Below, piece after piece: positions 42,303 to 53,351 of a DNA stretch of 64,000 nt; position 1 is the stretch's first letter, and each line of letters begins with the position of its first letter. The notes under the pieces are model-generated. The model worked only from the letters and a program-made list of their open reading frames with translations. It had not been told where the DNA came from and did no database searches. Position numbers and translations under genes: made by a program. The DNA comes from Promethearchaeota archaeon. GTDB lineage: Archaea; Asgardarchaeota; Lokiarchaeia; Sigyniarchaeales; SOKP01. The stretch spans positions 192,001-256,000 of the forward strand of contig JBHLOY010000004.1 of NCBI GenBank assembly GCA_048939995.1. The letters run 5' to 3'.

Positions 42303-42533
42303 TTAATAAAGCTCTAATTTAAGGTTATCAATTAGAGATGCTATATATTGAGCATTAAATGATTCTTTGTCTTCTAATTCATCATAAGCTCTCATATACT
42401 CACTCAATTGTTTTTGTTTCTCAAAATATTCTAATTCAAGATACCCTATCGAAAATTCAGGTAAAAATTGCTTGCATGAATCATCAATGACTTTTCTTTC
42501 CATTTCATCCAAATTTTTCACGTCAATTTCCAT
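42303..42533 (-). CDS. Small helical protein, partial paralog of 46775..47392
   Basis: Gapless 52-aa alignment with 16 identities to the middle of 46775..47392. Confidence 0.75.
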   Translation of the reverse strand: MEIDVKNLDEMERKVIDDSCKQFLPEFSIGYLELEYFEKQKQLSEYMRAYDELEDKESFNAQYIASLIDNLKLELY

Positions 42534-42610: not shown

Positions 42611-42668
42611 TTTGATAAGAAGATTTTTTATAGGTTTGATAAATTTTTTTATCAAAATTATTTTTAAG
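42611..42668 (-). promoter_or_regulatory. Operator-like element: half-site plus palindrome TTTGATAAA-N4-TTTATCAAA (42635-42656)
   Basis: 43/58 identical to 47477-47534; adjacent to a TATA-like TTTTTAAA on the minus strand. Confidence 0.6.
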
Positions 42669-44993: not shown

Positions 44994-45980
44994 TTACTTA
45001 TTAAGTAATCCCGATGCTATTTCAAAGGCATAATTATAATCAAATATCTTTAATCCCTTTGTTTTTGAAGCTTCTCTTAAAATTTGACTCTCTGTATTCG
45101 CTTTCAGTGCTCCTAGCGCTAAAGCACCAATACAAAATACTCCTGGATAAATCTCATCATTTTTATGTTTTGGTTTAATACCTTCAATACCGTAGGGAGG
45201 TACAAGATTAATATCGATAACAATCTTTTTACCTGGTAATTTTTGCATCCATTCTGAACTTAATATTTCAACTCCCGCTGCTGCGAGAGACCATATTACA
45301 AGTGCATCTTCTGCGATTTCAAACCGTTGTTCTGGTCCTGGAGCAAATACTCCAAAAATCTTTTCTGATTCTCCTCCGGTTTCTTCATTAAGCTCTTTTG
45401 CTAAAGTATTTATGAAATCTTTATTAGATTTCTCCCAAGTCTCAACAATATAGGTTTTACACCCCATCTTTCCCGCTAAAACTGCAGCAATTCTACCAAC
45501 AGGTCCTGCACCAAATATCACCACTTTCTTATCTTTTAAATCTCTAATACCATGTTTCTTATTGGCAATACTAATTGTCATGGCGACGACCGCAGATGCA
45601 GTAGTGTGCGATCCTCTGGGGTCAATAATGATAGGACACTCGAAAGGTGGTACTAATGAATTTTTAACGGCTTTAGCTATTTTTTCGCCTTCTTTTACAT
45701 CTGAACCACCAATAAAGAAAGCTGTAGGGGCACTAGGTTTCCTAGAAAATATTGCATCTTGAACTAATTTAGGAACATATTCTGCTTTCATTTTATTGAG
45801 AGGTATAACAATATCAAAACCAGCATCATAGGCCATATTTATATCAAATGGAGATGCATTATCGTCTGTATCAAAAAAGTAACAAATTTTATCGGAGGTA
45901 TCTTGTTTCTTTATAATAATTGGAGTTAATTCGATTATAGATTTTTTTCCTAAAATACTTTCCACACTTTTCTCAACCAT
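44994..45980 (-). CDS. NAD(P)-dependent methylene-H4MPT dehydrogenase, MtdB-like
   Basis: SPFDINMAYDAGFD, VQDAIFSR, PPF..DPRGSHTTA, GAGPVG, DINLVPPYGIEG. Confidence 0.82.
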   Translation of the reverse strand: MVEKSVESILGKKSIIELTPIIIKKQDTSDKICYFFDTDDNASPFDINMAYDAGFDIVIPLNKMKAEYVPKLVQDAIFSRKPSAPTAFFIGGSDVKEGEKIAKAVKNSLVPPFECPIIIDPRGSHTTASAVVAMTISIANKKHGIRDLKDKKVVIFGAGPVGRIAAVLAGKMGCKTYIVETWEKSNKDFINTLAKELNEETGGESEKIFGVFAPGPEQRFEIAEDALVIWSLAAAGVEILSSEWMQKLPGKKIVIDINLVPPYGIEGIKPKHKNDEIYPGVFCIGALALGALKANTESQILREASKTKGLKIFDYNYAFEIASGLLNK

Positions 45981-46023: not shown

Positions 46024-46755
46024 TTATTTTGAAATATCAATTTCTACATCTTTTTCGAAATCCTTTTCAAGTTCCTCAGTTTTAATAGTTCTTTTAATTT
46101 TAACTTGTTCCATTTCTATGCCTAAATCTTCTGATAGTTTTTCAATCCCATTAAAATGTCGAACATCGCATATAAACATCCCTTTCAACTTCTTTCCTTC
46201 TACATTCTTCGCAAGATTAAGAATATTCATCATCATCCATGCTTCTCTTACTTTATATCTTACTTCATCTTCTTGATTATCATAATCCTTCTTTAAATAC
46301 TCCTTCCATAATATTAACTTTTGAAACAGTTCATCATCTTCGGGAACTTTTCCTTGCTTTTGGATTAGTTCTCTAATTCTACATTCAAGATTTTTAATTG
46401 TAGATCTATGTTCATCTAAGGCTGATGAAAGATATAATTCAGCATTTTCAGAAATATCAGCAAGTTTGAAAGGAATCTTCCTTTTTTCAAATAGAGTTTT
46501 TAATGGATCATTTGCTTGATTTGCGTTATTCCAAAAATTCGGCTTTTCTTCCACAGCAAAATCAGGTTTATACTTTTCAATTAACGAATCAATCAATTGG
46601 AGGTATTCTTTTGAAATTAAATGAAGATTCCAAATAATATCTTCTTTAATTTCATCAGGAACTTCAAACCACCAATCAATTGGGAATTCACTCTCAACCA
46701 TTATCAATTTTAAATATTTATCCTTTAATGATTTTAATTCTAACACTTCTGGCAT
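46024..46755 (-). CDS. Uncharacterised protein, possible TraB/GumN/Tiki-like fold
   Basis: KYKPDFAVEE and VREAWM..MFICDVRHFNGI resemble TraB-type motifs; AGGAGG SD; paralog of its neighbour. Confidence 0.6.
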   Translation of the reverse strand: MPEVLELKSLKDKYLKLIMVESEFPIDWWFEVPDEIKEDIIWNLHLISKEYLQLIDSLIEKYKPDFAVEEKPNFWNNANQANDPLKTLFEKRKIPFKLADISENAELYLSSALDEHRSTIKNLECRIRELIQKQGKVPEDDELFQKLILWKEYLKKDYDNQEDEVRYKVREAWMMMNILNLAKNVEGKKLKGMFICDVRHFNGIEKLSEDLGIEMEQVKIKRTIKTEELEKDFEKDVEIDISK

Positions 46756-46774: not shown

Positions 46775-47392
46775 TTAAAATATTATATTTTGTATTGTAT
46801 GTTTTTTATTATAAGAAACTACTTTTACACCTAATTCCCTCAAATTGTTTGTAATCTCTGGGCAAATATCTTCACAAATATCTTCTTGAACAAAATGTAC
46901 AAAAGCAATGATGTCTTTTTCGTACTTTGACAATAAGTCTAACATTCTCTTAACAATCCATTGAGGTCTTAGTTTTAAACTTAGAAATATTTCTTTTTCC
47001 TGAATCTCTTCACCTAACATGTCAATCCAATTTTTTAAACTAAGCCCTTTATATGACTCTTTCTCAATCATATTTTCATATTCTTCAAATAATTCAGTTT
47101 GTAACTGTTGGTTTTCAATAATTTCTTGATATAAATATCCCATTGCATAATCTGGAATATCAACTTGGAAATAAGGGATTTTAAGCTCATTTAATGTTAG
47201 AGCAAACGGAGTTTTGCTAAATTCTTTCATATTAACTTGAAAATCTACTGTCACAAAATCTACATTGTTCTTTCTTAAAAATTCTCTTAGTTTTGTGGTA
47301 TCTTTATTTTGAAAATACTTAGCATTTTCTTTCGAGGAAATATAGGCAATAATTTTTTTATTTTTTATAGGCTTTAATTCCAAAACCTCCAT
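46775..47392 (-). CDS. Uncharacterised protein, paralog of 46024..46755
   Basis: Shared xVLELKxxKxK start, IP(Y/F)xxxDI..YL and K(L/V)RxxW motifs; GAGGTG SD. Confidence 0.65.
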   Translation of the reverse strand: MEVLELKPIKNKKIIAYISSKENAKYFQNKDTTKLREFLRKNNVDFVTVDFQVNMKEFSKTPFALTLNELKIPYFQVDIPDYAMGYLYQEIIENQQLQTELFEEYENMIEKESYKGLSLKNWIDMLGEEIQEKEIFLSLKLRPQWIVKRMLDLLSKYEKDIIAFVHFVQEDICEDICPEITNNLRELGVKVVSYNKKHTIQNIIF

Positions 47393-47476: not shown

Positions 47477-47534
47477 TTTGACAAGAAAATTTTGTGATAA
47501 TTTGATAATTTTTTTAGTCAAGATTTCTTTTAAC
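47477..47534 (-). promoter_or_regulatory. Operator-like element: half-site plus TTGAT-N10-GTCAA (47501-47522)
   Basis: Same layout (half-site 24 bp from palindrome) and similar distance to the start codon as 42611-42668. Confidence 0.6.
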
Positions 47535-47633: not shown

Positions 47634-47685
47634 TTTAAATAGATCGATAACTATCATTATCATGAAGAGAAATAAAATTGTCAAA
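47634..47685 (+). promoter_or_regulatory. Putative promoter of the wHTH-hdrA operon: TATA-like TTTAAATA, degenerate palindrome TCGAT-N10-ATCAT and half-site TTGTCAAA
   Basis: TTTAAATA 47634-47641; palindrome 47643-47664; TTGTCAAA 47678-47685. Confidence 0.4.
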
Positions 47686-47729
47686 TTTCAAAATTAACAA
47701 AAAATTTAATCAAAAGAGGAGATTTAACC

Positions 47730-50276
47730 ATAGGTATTTATAGTATCTTATCTCACCCTTTTCGACAAAAAATCCTACTCTTGTTAGAAAAAGAAGGATT
47801 CATCCCATACACCGATTTAATGGAAAAAATGGGTATCAATCAAACAGGTCAGTTAAATTTCCATTTGAAAAAATTAGGGTCCTTAATAAATAAAGATAAA
47901 AAATCTTATTATTTAAGTGAAGATGGCAAAAAAATTTTAAGAATTATGAATTTGAGCAAGCGTATTTTAGCAGGTGAAGAAATAGAATACTTAGATAAAA
48001 AAGGGAGTGAAATTAGTAGAATAGGAGTGATTTTATGTGGTTGTAATACTGAAATATCCAATATAATAAATATCAATGCATTGGAAAGTCAAATTGAAAA
48101 ATTAGATGGAGTAGTTTCAGTGAAGGTTTTTGATAATTTATGCCAAGAAAAAAATTTAAATAATATAACAAATTGGTCAAAAGAAAATTTTTTAAACAAA
48201 GTTGTTATAGCTGCTTGTTCCCCTAAAACTCATCAACATATTTTTGAGCGAATTTTCAAAGATGTGATTGATAATGCAAATATTGAAATAGCAAATATTA
48301 GGGAACAATGTTGTTGGGTTCATCATTCAAATATTCAACAATTTGATCCTTTATTAGCATTAAAGAAAGCGAGTTTATTAATTGAGGCTGCAGTTGAACG
48401 TGTAAGGCTTCAAAAAGAGGTTAAAATAAAAACTGTAGAAGTGGAAAAAAGCTGTGCAATATTAGGGGGTGGTATCGCAGGTATGACATTAGCCCTTAAT
48501 CTTTCACGTGCAGGGATAAAAGTATACCTAATTGAAAAATCACCTACTTTAGGCGGGAAAGTAGCCAGATGGCATCGGATTTCTAACATGGGGGATTGCT
48601 CTATATGTTTTATTTCCGAATTAATTGGTGAAATCGTAAAAGAAAAAAATATTGAAATTTTGACTAACACTGAAGTAGAAACCGTTTCTGGAGAAGTAGG
48701 AAATTTTAGCTTAGATTTAATCAAGAAACCTCGATTTGTTGATGAGAAAAAGTGTACTGGGTGCAAACAATGCATAAATGTGTGTGGCAAAGAAAAGAAA
48801 AATCAGTATGAATTTGATTTAACTAATCGAAAAATAATATATATCCCCTTCCAAAATGCATATCCATATGCTCCTCTAATTGACGAAGAAGATATTAATA
48901 ATTGTTTAAACTGTAAGATATGTGAACGTGTTTGTATTAATAAAGCAATAGATCTAAGCCAAAAAGTTGAAAAAGTTCGAATTAAAGTCGGAGTTAAAGT
49001 TATAGCTATAGGTGCTGACCTGTACTCCAATCTAGTGAAATATCTATATAATCCTCAAAAAGATATTATCACTTCTGCTGAATTTGAGAGAATTCTATCT
49101 TCGGATGGCATTACTGAGGGAAAATTGCTAAGGTTATCAGATAAAAAACCGATAAATTCCATTTCAATCATTCAAGAAGTTGGTCCATCTAAATATCTTG
49201 CAGAATATTCTGAAAACTTAGCGCAAAAATATATTGAGGATATTAAAATAAGAAGTCCTGACTGTGAAGTAAATGTTTTTTACGATTTAAGTAAATTAAA
49301 AAATAAAGATGAGATATTTCTAAAATCAACCAATCCAAGATTTCTTTACGCTAATAACATATCTATTGAGTCTAATGGTAAAATTAACTATGTTATAGCC
49401 GATAATATTGAATTTCCAAGCGATCTGATAGTTTTAAATCTCAAATGTATACCTAATAAAGATCTAAAAATATTACGTAGATTCATGGATTTTACATTGA
49501 ATGATTACGGTTTTATGAGTGAAGAAACCCTAGCGTCAGGTATTTATGGAGTTGGAACAATATTTGGGGCTTTAAATTACCAAACTACCCTTTCTACAGT
49601 GAATACTGTTGCGTTAAAAATTATTGCACTACTCTCAAATGATTATTTATTAGCTGAATTTACTGGAATTGAAATTAATGAAGATAAATGTGGATTATGT
49701 GGATTATGTGAGAAAGCATGTCCTTATAATGCAATAACTATAGAATCGAATAAGATTAATATTGATAAATTTAAATGTAAAGGATGTGGTACATGCGCTG
49801 GAGTGTGTTCTACAAACGCCATTGAAATGAACATCGATACTTCAGAAAAGATTTTAAGAACAATTGAGATTTATTCAAAATTTGCTAAAAATCCTAAAAT
49901 TATCGCTTTTTGTTGTTCTTCTTGTGGTTATGCCGCAGCTGATGATGCTGGTCTAAAAAAGGAGTTATATCAACCAAATATTTTTGTGATCCGCATTCCC
50001 TGTACTGGAAGATTAGATACTGAATTTATTTTTAAATCTTTTGAGGTCGGATTTGATGGAGTAATGGTAATAGGATGCAGGAAAGATGCTTGCAGATATA
50101 TTGATGGTATTGAAAAAGCACAAAAAAAGATAACTCTCCTAAAAAGGATATTAAATCCCAAATATAGCAACCGAATTATATTTAAAAATTTAAATGCTGT
50201 AGAGGGCCATAAGTTTGCTGAGATCGCAAATAAATTTTATAATATTTTAAAGGAGGGGGCTACTAATCAAACTTAA
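47730..50276 (+). CDS. ArsR-like winged-HTH - HdrA-like flavoprotein/Fe-S - MvhD fusion
   Basis: IYSILSHPFRQKIL..GQLNFHLKKL (wHTH); GVILCGC, ACSP, NIREQCCWVH, GGGIAG, ferredoxin motifs (HdrA); IAFCCSSCGYAAAD, PCTGR, DGVMVIGC..CRY (MvhD); proposed ATA start after GAGGAG. Confidence 0.88.
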   Translation: MGIYSILSHPFRQKILLLLEKEGFIPYTDLMEKMGINQTGQLNFHLKKLGSLINKDKKSYYLSEDGKKILRIMNLSKRILAGEEIEYLDKKGSEISRIGVILCGCNTEISNIININALESQIEKLDGVVSVKVFDNLCQEKNLNNITNWSKENFLNKVVIAACSPKTHQHIFERIFKDVIDNANIEIANIREQCCWVHHSNIQQFDPLLALKKASLLIEAAVERVRLQKEVKIKTVEVEKSCAILGGGIAGMTLALNLSRAGIKVYLIEKSPTLGGKVARWHRISNMGDCSICFISELIGEIVKEKNIEILTNTEVETVSGEVGNFSLDLIKKPRFVDEKKCTGCKQCINVCGKEKKNQYEFDLTNRKIIYIPFQNAYPYAPLIDEEDINNCLNCKICERVCINKAIDLSQKVEKVRIKVGVKVIAIGADLYSNLVKYLYNPQKDIITSAEFERILSSDGITEGKLLRLSDKKPINSISIIQEVGPSKYLAEYSENLAQKYIEDIKIRSPDCEVNVFYDLSKLKNKDEIFLKSTNPRFLYANNISIESNGKINYVIADNIEFPSDLIVLNLKCIPNKDLKILRRFMDFTLNDYGFMSEETLASGIYGVGTIFGALNYQTTLSTVNTVALKIIALLSNDYLLAEFTGIEINEDKCGLCGLCEKACPYNAITIESNKINIDKFKCKGCGTCAGVCSTNAIEMNIDTSEKILRTIEIYSKFAKNPKIIAFCCSSCGYAAADDAGLKKELYQPNIFVIRIPCTGRLDTEFIFKSFEVGFDGVMVIGCRKDACRYIDGIEKAQKKITLLKRILNPKYSNRIIFKNLNAVEGHKFAEIANKFYNILKEGATNQT

Positions 50277-51012
50277 ATTTATTGTAGCTTCATTAACTTC
50301 ATGCAGTGGATGTATTTCAACATTGATGGCTTTAGATATGTTTTCTCAATTTTTAGAAAGGACCGAAATTTCATTTTTCCCATTTATTTCAGACCAAATT
50401 GAAGTTAATGATTCAGATATCGCATTAATAGAGGGTTGTGTTTCAGAAATCAGTCAAATAGCAACTTTGAAGAATATTAGGAAACATGCAAAAAAAGTTT
50501 ATGCTTTAGGTACCTGTGCTACTTTTGGGGGAATTTTGGGATTATCTAAAAGAAAAAATTCTGATCAAATCTCAAAATTTATAGATATTGATGGATTTAT
50601 ACCTGGTTGCCCCCCTCCAACAAATCTGCTAGGAAATTCCTTAATGAGACTAATTGAAAATAAGAGCATTATTTTATCAGAAAAAAATATGTGTATTTCT
50701 TGTCCTCTCAAAGATGAAATGCATTTAAATTCTCAAATCTCAAAACTTAGTCCTTCTAATTCTGAAATTATGTCAGATAAACGAGAATGCTTTTTAAATA
50801 ATGGAATTTTATGTTTAGGACCGATTACTCGAGAAGGGTGTAATAATAAATGTATAGAACTGGGAATACCATGTGAGGGATGCTTAGGTCCTCCTAAAAA
50901 ACAGTTTACTTCAAACCTAATTAATTTCTTAAGTCTGGTTCAACTATCCAATAAATTAAAGAGATATTCGGGTATTTTTTACAGATTTTCAAAACCAACA
51001 TTAAGAGGGTGA
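50263..51012 (+). CDS. mvhG: Group 3 [NiFe]-hydrogenase small subunit (MvhG-like)
   Basis: LTSCSGC (upstream of the first TTG), EGC, GTCATFGG, PGCPP, CLGPITREGC..C..PCEGC; start CTA 50263 or ATC 50266 after AGGAGG. Confidence 0.85.
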   Translation, partial: LIKLKFIVASLTSCSGCISTLMALDMFSQFLERTEISFFPFISDQIEVNDSDIALIEGCVSEISQIATLKNIRKHAKKVYALGTCATFGGILGLSKRKNSDQISKFIDIDGFIPGCPPPTNLLGNSLMRLIENKSIILSEKNMCISCPLKDEMHLNSQISKLSPSNSEIMSDKRECFLNNGILCLGPITREGCNNKCIELGIPCEGCLGPPKKQFTSNLINFLSLVQLSNKLKRYSGIFYRFSKPTLRG

Positions 51013-51018
51013 GGAAGA

Positions 51019-52317
51019 GTACAGAAGGTAATAAATGTATGTTCAAGAGTTGAAGGCCATGGGAAAGTAAATTATTTCATACAAAATGAGCATATTGACC
51101 ATGTTGAATTCGAAATTTCTGCATTTAGGGGATTCGAAAACATTTTAATAGGTAAGAAATTAAGTGATATCCCTAAGATTGTTTCACGAATTTGCGGTCT
51201 ATGTCATGCTTCCCAAACAATTGCTAGTTGTAAAGCAATTGAAAAAATTTATGAAATCCAACCTAGTTCTCAAGCTACTTTACTTCGAAGATTATTAATG
51301 ACGGGAGAATTAATTAAATCTCATATTATGCATTTTTTCTTTCAAACCTTACCAGATCTTTTAGAAATTTTTCAAGTGTTTAAAAATGGAATTGATTCAT
51401 ACAATTTAATTAGATTTGATTCTCAATTGAGTACTTGCGTTTTTGATTTAATTAAAGCAGGAACTGAGTTAAATAATCTTTTTGGAGGAAGGATAATTCA
51501 TTTGATTACCCCTGTTCCCGGAGGAATGATCTACTACCCTTCAAAAAAGAAAATTCTACTTGCCCAAAAATATTTGCAGAAATCTGCTTCTAATATACAA
51601 TATGTTTTAGATCGCTTCGTTGAATTATTCTCTACTAAGAATCCTCCTTATGAATTTAATATATCGAATCTATCATATCTAGGAATGACTAATCAAGGAA
51701 AATATGATAGATATAATGGGACTCTAAGCATTATTCCTTTCAATCAGAATAGAATAAATTTTGAAATCAATGATTACGAAAACTATTTTGATAAAGACTC
51801 TTGTTTGTTTGGAATAAAATTTTTATCTGATATAAAGAATATCTTAACTGGACCTATCGCAAGATTCTTTTTAGTAAAAAATAATAATGAAATTGAAAAA
51901 AATACTATAATAAATAACTTTGATAATAATTGGAAAGAAAATCTATTACTTATGAACATTTTGCAACTATTAGAGATCTCTAATGAAATAAAGGGTAGTC
52001 TAGAGATATTAAATAAACATAGTCTAGAAATTAAAGAACCACTTCCCTCTCTTAATTCCACTTTAAATCAAGAGGGTATTGGAATGGTTGAAGCTCCACG
52101 TGGGACCCTCATACACCACTACCATTTGAATAAATCTAAGGTTATTGATAATGTTAAACTCTTTATAGCCACTGAAATTAATTTTCCCCTTTTGAATGAA
52201 AAAATTAAAAATTACGCTCAAGAGTTATACAAAAAAGAAGATTTAGAATCTCTCAATAGAAAAGTTCAAATTATGATAAGAGCTTTTGATCCATGTATCT
52301 CTTGTGCCACACATTAA
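51019..52317 (+). CDS. mvhA: Group 3 [NiFe]-hydrogenase large subunit (MvhA-like), sensor-like features
   Basis: In frame upstream of the track start: RVEGHG, RGFE, RICGLCHASQ; also EAPRG and DPCISCATH-stop; proposed GTA start after GGTGA. Confidence 0.88.
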   Translation, partial: VQKVINVCSRVEGHGKVNYFIQNEHIDHVEFEISAFRGFENILIGKKLSDIPKIVSRICGLCHASQTIASCKAIEKIYEIQPSSQATLLRRLLMTGELIKSHIMHFFFQTLPDLLEIFQVFKNGIDSYNLIRFDSQLSTCVFDLIKAGTELNNLFGGRIIHLITPVPGGMIYYPSKKKILLAQKYLQKSASNIQYVLDRFVELFSTKNPPYEFNISNLSYLGMTNQGKYDRYNGTLSIIPFNQNRINFEINDYENYFDKDSCLFGIKFLSDIKNILTGPIARFFLVKNNNEIEKNTIINNFDNNWKENLLLMNILQLLEISNEIKGSLEILNKHSLEIKEPLPSLNSTLNQEGIGMVEAPRGTLIHHYHLNKSKVIDNVKLFIATEINFPLLNEKIKNYAQELYKKEDLESLNRKVQIMIRAFDPCISCATH

Positions 52318-52337
52318 AAAGATTTAGTGTTGATCTA

Positions 52338-53351
52338 ATGAATAATATCGAAACGATTCGCAAGGATAATGTAGAACCTGTGCAACTATGTGAAATTTTC
52401 TTACTCTACTTTGATGAGGAATTTGGCCCAATGCCACTTCTTATCACTCCGGATGAATCTTTAAAAAATAATCTCGATGTTATGCGGTTAATTAGAATCC
52501 ATTCCATTTGGTTTCTTGATATAAGCGATCAGACCTCTCCTGATCGTATGGATTTAGAATATAAGGAAAAAATCTATTTTGCAAAGAAATTTTTAGTACC
52601 TTCACAGAGAGAAAAACGACGGTCAGGTTCTGAAGGAGATACTTATGAAACACTCGTTTTAATTTTAGCTTTACCAGTTGATATGGATATCTTTGGAGGA
52701 GCTCTTCTCAAAAGAATGGCTGAACGATTAACAAAGCATTTTGCATTAAAATTCACTCGCTTGATAGATTCTGAAGTGGCAAAAATGAATGCCATAAAAA
52801 CGCCTTCAACCTTAACTTTAATTCAGATCGGCGATACTATTAAAAAACGAATAAGCGTTTTAATCAAAAATACATGTGTCCAATATTTTGATGCTGTAAT
52901 CAAAAAAACGGATTCTACAACTTTCAAACTTCAAAAAGCTATATCATATTTATCGTTAAAAGGAGTCCCAATTAACTATATTGTAAGTGAAGAGGGAAAT
53001 TTAGGCTTTTCAAATGTAAAACTGTTTGAATCAAAAGTTTTAGCAAATGACACATATGGAATTCGAAATCAATTTAAGATTTTAAGCACTGATATAGATC
53101 CAGATACTCAGGAAGTTGAAATCTTAATTAAAAATCAAACAAGTAAAGAATTTAATAACATATATGCAAAAGTTATTTCTATTCAAGAATTCTTCGAAAA
53201 AGAGGTTTTACGTGAAAATATTGAAAAATGGCTTCCTGAAGAGGAATTAATTATTATTTTACCAAATATAATCTCAAATTTTGAATACTATTTTTCTATT
53301 CAAGATGTTAGTTCCAATCAGACTCTGTTTAAACAAAAACTAAGATTGTAA
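52338..53351 (+). CDS. Hypothetical protein with longin/uDENN-like N-terminus and beta-rich C-terminus
   Basis: IFLLYFDEEFGPMPLLITP resembles the first strands of NPRL2/DENN longin domains. Confidence 0.5.
   Translation: MNNIETIRKDNVEPVQLCEIFLLYFDEEFGPMPLLITPDESLKNNLDVMRLIRIHSIWFLDISDQTSPDRMDLEYKEKIYFAKKFLVPSQREKRRSGSEGDTYETLVLILALPVDMDIFGGALLKRMAERLTKHFALKFTRLIDSEVAKMNAIKTPSTLTLIQIGDTIKKRISVLIKNTCVQYFDAVIKKTDSTTFKLQKAISYLSLKGVPINYIVSEEGNLGFSNVKLFESKVLANDTYGIRNQFKILSTDIDPDTQEVEILIKNQTSKEFNNIYAKVISIQEFFEKEVLRENIEKWLPEEELIIILPNIISNFEYYFSIQDVSSNQTLFKQKLRL

Follow-up and report, generated by a model that had tools for sequence, protein, structure and literature searches.

The modules of the system described here are known from the MvhAGD-HdrABC complex (5ODC) and from HdrA-MvhD fusions (NF040770), with which it has folds, most cluster ligands and the residues around flavin adenine dinucleotide (FAD) in common. 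A second point of comparison is the HoxBC-HoxJ-HoxA system of Cupriavidus necator (group 2b; HupUV likewise), in which HoxBC signals via a histidine kinase and a response regulator. Proteins that join catalysis or redox chemistry to DNA binding are also familiar: PutA is a redox-switched flavoenzyme fused to a DNA-binding domain, BirA and the archaeal RbkR likewise count among trigger enzymes and enzyme-derived one-component regulators, and SurR of Pyrococcus is a stand-alone ArsR-type redox switch over hydrogen metabolism that uses a CxxC motif; none of these, in contrast to the present system, is a multi-subunit hydrogenase. The locus in question lies on a 64,000-nucleotide stretch of the genome of a Promethearchaeota archaeon (Lokiarchaeia, Sigyniarchaeales; contig JBHLOY010000004.1, forward-strand positions 192,001 to 256,000), called the window below, and consists of three genes, called the cassette, that encode a winged helix-turn-helix (wHTH) domain fused to HdrA and MvhD modules and the small and large subunits of a nickel-iron ([NiFe]) hydrogenase. 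Judging from sequence, the best explanation, with a probability of roughly 55%, is that the three genes encode a low-abundance sensor-repressor, the repressor being read out by an attached H2/redox wire. The parts of the cassette are as follows.

47730..50276, plus strand: wHTH-HdrA-MvhD fusion, 848 aa; ATA start, Shine-Dalgarno sequence GAGGAG at 47716-47721
47730..47975, plus strand: ArsR-like winged helix (DUF7347), residues 1-82, from Pfam match, structure model and profile matches
48015..49883, plus strand: HdrA body; N-terminal cluster Cys, GGGIAG, Glu453, Lys500, and inserted and C-terminal ferredoxins kept
49176..49214, plus strand: lost ligand site of the HA4 [4Fe-4S] cluster, 0/4 Cys at residues 483, 490, 494 and 495, from alignment
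49884..50276, plus strand: MvhD domain; invariant [2Fe-2S] Cys 729, 732, 758, 783 and 788
50266..51012, plus strand: [NiFe] small subunit (248 aa, start codon ATC) in which the 12 Cys of three clusters are invariant
51019..52317, plus strand: [NiFe] large subunit (432 aa, start codon GTA) that keeps the four Ni Cys, Glu12, Asp113, Arg361 and Thr385

The fusion frame is open from stop to stop between 47676 and 50276, and its product matches DUF7347/HTH at residues 4-72, then HdrA, then a C-terminal FlpD/MvhD domain, which bears out the proposal of an earlier note on this DNA that an ArsR-type winged helix is joined to HdrA and MvhD in one polypeptide; the motifs quoted there are present in the open reading frame (ORF). 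All three genes begin with near-cognate codons (ATA 47730, ATC 50266, GTA 51019), each behind a Shine-Dalgarno sequence. The column of the fusion's start is occupied by ATG, TTG or GTG in homologues, and near-cognate starts, including ATT, ACG and TTA, are scattered across all three genes in close relatives, a pattern that suggests low expression. A pseudogene reading, in which no gene has a normal start, was rejected in view of the Shine-Dalgarno sequences at homologous start columns and ratios of nonsynonymous to synonymous substitution (dN/dS) of 0.04-0.15.

The earlier note had also raised the prospect of a chimera confined to one assembly, and this too was rejected. The wHTH-HdrA junction occurs in 120 of 400 Asgard genomes, spread over 9 families, and independent contigs carry it: contigs from other studies span the junction and the first start codon unchanged, and one 4.3-kb contig from another study reaches from HdrA to the large subunit. 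Cassette bearers belong to the Loki-, Hel-, Jord-, Thor- and Sigynarchaeia, and the Bathyarchaeia are the only members identified outside Asgard (two of seven clusters at 50% identity are without a name). The gene trio is contiguous in 37 of the 40 loci fetched, two of the others stopping at a contig edge and one holding a truncated copy, and the hydrogenase genes accompany the fusion in every intact locus; in the window the fusion, small- and large-subunit genes overlap or nearly touch. In family f3, which includes three single-contig assemblies, none of the 14 genomes showed the fusion.

The fused protein is very probably a DNA-binding regulator, judging from its sequence. The structure model predicts a winged helix (helices 1-4, wing, helix 5) with a predicted local distance difference test (pLDDT) score of 72-90, followed by a flexible, disordered linker at residues 84-93; the domain matches DUF7347 in Pfam (E 4e-12), and its profile matches the ArsR-like proteins 1y0u (E 1e-6) and PagR. 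All parts of the cassette show purifying selection, the wHTH with a dN/dS of 0.04-0.09, and conservation of the wHTH (61%) equals that of the cofactor domains, with a nearly invariant recognition helix (Thr39, Gly40, Asn43, His45). Prediction of a wHTH homodimer gave a score of 0.48, against 0.00 for the best control, a mark that 20 of the 30 solved pairs and one of the 23 single chains reach. Contacts agree between runs to at least 88%, pLDDT is at least 89, and the interface is formed by the first and last helices (residues 2-13 and 68-82). The prediction may stem from likeness to solved ArsR dimers. Since the wHTH is predicted to dimerise alone, HdrA need not supply the dimer, a role that the earlier note had suggested it could have.

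A palindrome, WTGAYAA-N6-TTRTCAW, is the candidate operator of this domain. It scores above threshold in 45 of 63 cassette upstream regions, compared with 1.8 in shuffles, and four copies in the window are listed here, with scores by position weight matrix (PWM) where given.

47634..47641, plus strand: putative TATA box of the cassette, TTTAAATA, at an equal position relative to the operator in relatives
47644..47663, no strand: operator 1, separated from the TATA box by two bases (PWM 18.2)
47665..47684, no strand: operator 2, weaker tandem copy (PWM 10.5); the tandem pair recurs in relatives
47502..47521, no strand: operator before the divergent operon (PWM 16.4)
42636..42655, no strand: operator upstream of a 76-aa ORF; best-scoring site genome-wide, conserved in relatives

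With its own genus excluded from training, the two top sites in the 3.75 Mb genome are those at 42636 and 47644, both in the window. In relatives the operator likewise follows the TATA box by 2-3 bp, and archaeal regulators bound just after TATA are known to block polymerase recruitment (PMC5937170, where the role of SurR is also mentioned), so its position would be that of a repressor site. A matrix trained on fusion promoters only gave an out-of-sample test: the operator was found before up2-mtd in 11 of 11 f19 and Thorarchaeia loci, where these genes lie downstream of the cassette; ahead of an FrhB-like gene and a divergent selenocysteine (Sec)-type hdrA of a single Loki clade; and, in Bathyarchaeia, ahead of the gcvH-hydCBD-[FeFe] operon. 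Exact sites number on average 3.5 per genome with the cassette versus 2.2 without it (control about 1), counts in which kin are not independent. No large genome-wide regulon emerged, the remaining high-scoring sites lying mostly inside ORFs. In all, the fold of the model, the selection on the domain and a conserved operator in repressor position, also at partner genes, uphold the DNA-binding role that the earlier note had proposed. Two promoter blocks of about 56 bp, 42611-42666 and 47477-47532, align gaplessly, each with an operator, and the duplicated promoter accompanies a 76-aa fragment of the up1/up2 family described below.

The same trio has been pictured in Helarchaeota as a "possible energy-transferring complex" at the membrane (Seitz et al. 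2019, PMC6478937 Fig. 5), and the contigs shown there, of 7209 and 35804 bp, agree in length with our loci L055 and L056, the large subunit of the latter having the ambiguous bases mentioned in that paper. If this were the whole function, the wHTH would not bind DNA and the palindrome would belong to another regulator, for which the other DUF7347 proteins of the genome would be at hand. The membrane segments predicted in the published proposal speak for such an account, but it is very improbable: the peak hydropathy of the cassette proteins (1.1-1.7) equals that of soluble housekeeping homologues and is reached on FAD- and cluster-binding motifs, the structure model is a soluble HdrA fold, and all the way from Loki to Bathyarchaeia the operator goes with the cassette, the recognition helix being nearly invariant.

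The electron wire attached to the wHTH is altered at one cluster. The model of the HdrA body has the HdrA fold, with template modelling (TM) scores of 0.81-0.84 to solved HdrA, and in 39 of 39 sequences the cysteines of the N-terminal, inserted and C-terminal clusters and those of the MvhD [2Fe-2S] cluster are invariant. The GGGIAG FAD motif, Glu453 (the Glu356 equivalent) and Lys500 (the equivalent of Lys409, whose role in HdrA is described in PMC13514486) are invariant as well. The exception is HA4, which passes the high-potential electron to heterodisulfide (PMC12350162): none of its four cysteine ligands is kept in the window's fusion, 53 of 66 members retain 0-2 of them, and loss extends to all Loki, Hel and Jord members examined, with HA4 intact in 13 of 66 members. 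The four cysteines of the FAD-adjacent cluster motif are those that we take, from the 5ODC structure, to be the HA4 ligands. The window contains no match to the CCG/HdrB family, as the earlier note had stated for hdrB and hdrC; the statement stands for the window and is weak evidence alone, since 42 CCG-domain matches, complete hdrBC among them, lie elsewhere in the genome. Likewise, none of 70 partly redundant cassette loci has an hdrB close by, but many hdrBC copies are found elsewhere in the genome.

These features bear on an alternative that is unlikely, namely that the cassette encodes a trigger enzyme, a working metabolic hydrogenase that, like PutA, also represses its own and partner genes. 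Its activity would be H2:ferredoxin, or full bifurcation with HdrBC from elsewhere in the lineages that keep HA4, and its hold on DNA might depend on redox state, cofactor load or the availability of partners. The retention of NiFe ligands, catalytic residues, FAD residues and all clusters other than HA4 fits this, as do the members with HA4, the plentiful hdrBC genes and a Bathyarchaeia [FeFe] hybrid operon whose only nearby large subunit is that of the cassette. The uniform loss of HA4 in Loki, Hel and Jord members speaks against it, as do the separate housekeeping hydrogenase, the faster evolution of the cassette large subunit and the low expression that the near-cognate starts in all three genes would imply.

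The earlier note had placed MvhG and MvhA behind the fusion: small and large [NiFe] subunits do follow directly, and the large subunit belongs to a separate group-3 clade rather than to group 3c MvhA. The small subunit is without the C-terminal ferredoxin extension seen in VhuG of the same genome, and in the large subunit the Glu of proton transfer and the Arg and Asp of the canopy are kept. Its Gln66 aligns with Gln67 of HoxC from C. necator, a position held by His in 43 of 45 other hydrogenases, and it ends at the terminal His without a C-terminal extension, like HoxC (compared from PMC8229454). HoxBC and the cassette thus have the Gln for His by the NiFe site and the missing extension in common, and each is a second hydrogenase beside an energy-conserving one; the cassette differs from HoxBC in its clade, in not sharing Ile62/Phe110, and in its output, which would go directly through the fused DNA-binding domain. 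The adjacent window genes, to which the scan was confined, match no PAS histidine kinase or response regulator family. In a quick tree, read with its long-branch warnings, 36 cassette large subunits form their own group-3 branch (SH-aLRT 97), separate from Vhu/Mvh, HoxH-like, 3b-like and HoxC sequences, with HoxC far outside it and the cassette not in the group 2b clade; a VhuA model gives the cassette subunit 126 bits and the housekeeping copy 457. The likeness to HoxC is thus convergence, and the large subunit is not related to HoxC by descent.

The cassette also departs from MvhAGD-HdrABC and NF040770 in its N-terminal wHTH, the loss of HA4 in the window's lineage, the absence of hdrB nearby and a large subunit outside the Vhu/Mvh clade; its score is 550 against a cut-off of 1100. 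It has the group 3c traits of four NiFe cysteines, catalytic Glu and Arg, a three-cluster small subunit, and MvhD and HdrA partners, and it agrees in full with the definition of neither group 3c Mvh-Hdr nor group 2b sensors.

Several observations weigh against the sensor-repressor reading. The equivalents of Glu356 and Lys409, residues that serve bifurcation, are invariant. The members from Thorarchaeia, f19, f28 and Bathyarchaeia keep four HA4 cysteines, the His and a tail of 7-13 residues, and so look more catalytic. The gas-channel residues Ile62 and Phe110 of HoxC are Leu61 and Gln109 in the cassette, and absence of the tail is also found among non-sensory hydrogenases. The palindrome is not above threshold in f28, f4 and some Helarchaeales loci, and the genome has five further DUF7347 matches, so another regulator could own it. 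Ordered by lineage, the changes look stepwise: His, tail and HA4 are all present in Thorarchaeia, f19, f28 and Bathyarchaeia, HA4 is lost in the Jord members, Gln appears in f4 and Helarchaeales, and the tail is lost in the window's family, the Gln67 equivalent and tail absence holding together in family f1 only. The repurposed, sensor-like wire that the earlier note had proposed therefore fits the window's lineage (HA4 lost, Gln67, no tail) and not the deeper lineages, which keep HA4, His and a short tail. The f28 large subunits (L032-L035) are without the terminal His.

It is improbable that the regulator instead reads an internal signal, such as the ferredoxin or F420H2 pool, cluster damage by O2 or nickel loading, with the hydrogenase as its drain or reset. 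Both ferredoxin domains are invariant and could accept cellular electrons, an FrhB-like gene lies in the cassette operon in one clade, and Cdc48 and uncharacterised proteins of the divergent operon would fit a stress response; methanogens, moreover, change to F420H2-fed Hdr under nickel limitation (PMC12350162). Yet the hydrogenase genes are translationally coupled to the fusion and travel with it in every intact locus, and the convergent HoxC-like changes are located at the NiFe site.

Beside the cassette the genome has a separate Sec-type VhuAU with hdrABC, HypD and a maturation protease; this housekeeping hydrogenase (G000 C17 418964-421790) is a split VhuA plus VhuU with an in-frame TGA for selenocysteine, an arrangement also found in families f9, f21, f28 and f31, and a housekeeping copy of this kind recurs in most of the cassette carriers that were checked. 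Compared with genome G161, the housekeeping subunit has 85% identity and the cassette subunit 49%, the former being the slower to evolve. Against only two [NiFe] large subunits, the genome has 14 MvhD domains and 42 CCG-domain matches, which makes its Hdr-like repertoire very large. SepSecS is present.

The cassette could also be a set of Cys-only isoenzymes for Sec-containing VhuU, VhuD and HdrA, with a built-in repressor, as a selenium-free backup. The UGA in the housekeeping VhuU, the presence of SepSecS, the fwdDB genes adjoining the cassette in f28 and the precedent of Methanococcus vhc, hdrA and fwdB (PMC11097638) are in its favour. It is nonetheless the most improbable of the accounts considered: four f19 genomes (84-91% complete) carry cassette and operator with no SepSecS found, two f19 genomes checked have other Cys-type large subunits, Cys-type copies of HdrA and MvhD exist elsewhere in the genome, and an HdrA without HA4 cannot replace Hdr function.

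If the sensor-repressor reading holds, its candidate targets in the window, besides the cassette itself, lie in the divergent operon, behind which comes a 76-aa ORF with an operator of its own.

46775..47392, minus strand: up1, first gene of the divergent operon, paralogue of up2
46024..46755, minus strand: up2, alpha/beta protein that has a long helical hairpin and a weak likeness to TraB/ChaN
44994..45980, minus strand: MtdA-like NAD(P)-dependent methylene-tetrahydromethanopterin (H4MPT) dehydrogenase; no second gene of this kind was found in the genome
42697..44961, minus strand: Cdc48-type AAA ATPase, 33 bp after mtd
42303..42533, minus strand: 76-aa ORF resembling the up1/up2 helical hairpin (HHalign probability 69%, E 4e-5)

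Among well-assembled genomes of the window's family, up2 is present in 66 of 66 that carry the cassette and in 6 of 23 that do not, and in many relatives it is fused to Mtd. A fold search, dominated by the helical hairpin, gave leads only: ChaN (Z 8.3, root-mean-square deviation 4.0, 146 aligned) and a TraB atlas match (0.82). The two proteins belong to an unannotated Asgard family, duplicated up to three times, without a conserved catalytic set. The cdc48 gene is probably co-transcribed with mtd. As the genome also encodes an F420-dependent Mtd, the regulated mtd could change which electron carrier serves the H4MPT branch.

In other genomes the surroundings vary. In Bathyarchaeia the cassette lies directly behind a hydC-hydB-hydD-hyhS/hydA operon of the group F hybrid [FeFe]/[NiFe] type (PMC11216029, whose accessible part mentions no regulator for such operons), which is likely a target or partner of the cassette and not the cassette itself; in locus L151 (3378-8629) the order is gcvH-hydC-hydB-hydD-hyhS/hydA (group F-like hybrid), without a large subunit of its own, and the only one near it is the cassette's. 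In f28 (L032-L035) fwdD-fwdB precede the cassette and an NAD(P)H-hydrate repair gene follows it, and there is no clear operator. In the Helarchaeales loci L054-L056 and L155 a conserved 180-aa protein, not related to up1/up2, replaces them in divergent orientation, and two of these loci (L055, L155) have the operator before it; the large subunit is followed in L054 by a NifB-like radical SAM gene and in L155 by a radical SAM gene. In the window the large subunit is directly followed by a 352-aa protein (52293-53351) with no Pfam or NCBIfam match, a counterpart of which only some family members keep.

A mechanism can be outlined for the sensor-repressor. Two fusion proteins would dimerise, and their wHTH pair would bind WTGAYAA-N6-TTRTCAW over the transcription start and block RNA polymerase, while the MvhD domain would be the docking place of the large and small subunits. 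Oxidation of H2 at the NiFe site would reduce the wire as far as FAD, and, without HA4 as an exit to HdrBC in the window's lineage, the electrons could drain only via the ferredoxin clusters, so that the complex would report H2 against the ferredoxin pool. In Hdr structures the N-terminal domain of HdrA is part of an arm that rotates between states (PMC12350162); the wHTH, tethered to this domain, would have there a route from redox state to DNA binding, the position of the arm deciding whether the wHTH pair holds the operator. Targets would be the cassette itself and alternative electron routes: the NADP-type Mtd in the window, and elsewhere the FrhB-like/Sec-HdrA pair and the [FeFe]/HydBCD operon. 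The direction can be guessed only slightly better than evenly: plentiful H2 would bring repression, and a shortage of H2 or nickel would lift it, the reduced form being slightly favoured as the repressing one because the targets look useful at low H2.

The further step, that this is a one-component archaeal H2 sensor, evolved independently from a group-3 hydrogenase wired via a dead-ended HdrA to a fused repressor, has about an even chance of being right. On that reading a hydrogenase complex would itself be the transcription factor and would switch the electron carriers used in C1 and H2 metabolism by Asgard archaea and Bathyarchaeia. The earlier note knew of no described system of this kind. 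For the wHTH and the operator this agrees with the searched literature, which covers few subscription papers and in which we found no description of a wHTH-HdrA fusion or of a DNA-binding hydrogenase complex; the trio as such had been pictured, under another interpretation, in PMC6478937, whose accessible portion makes no mention of the wHTH, the operator, the loss of HA4 or sensor features. New in this analysis are the cross-lineage tests, namely the out-of-sample tracking of the regulon, the link to Bathyarchaeia, the losses in steps, the side-by-side comparison with HoxC, the tree and the match to prior art.

A 2011 survey of two model methanogens found no H2 sensor and no sensory hydrogenase (PMC3087415), and H2 sensing in archaea is an open question. 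Exchange of H2 between Asgard archaea and their partners is central to syntrophy models of the origin of eukaryotes, and given this dependence an H2-reading regulator with a defined operator would make the H2 response testable. In metabolic reconstructions of Asgard archaea, the cassette genes call for caution before they are counted as metabolic Mvh-Hdr. If the sensor-repressor reading is true, an electron-bifurcating module has been turned into a signalling device, with the intermediate stages still alive in lineages that keep or have lost HA4, the His and the tail, and a sensory hydrogenase and a one-component repressor would be combined in a single complex.

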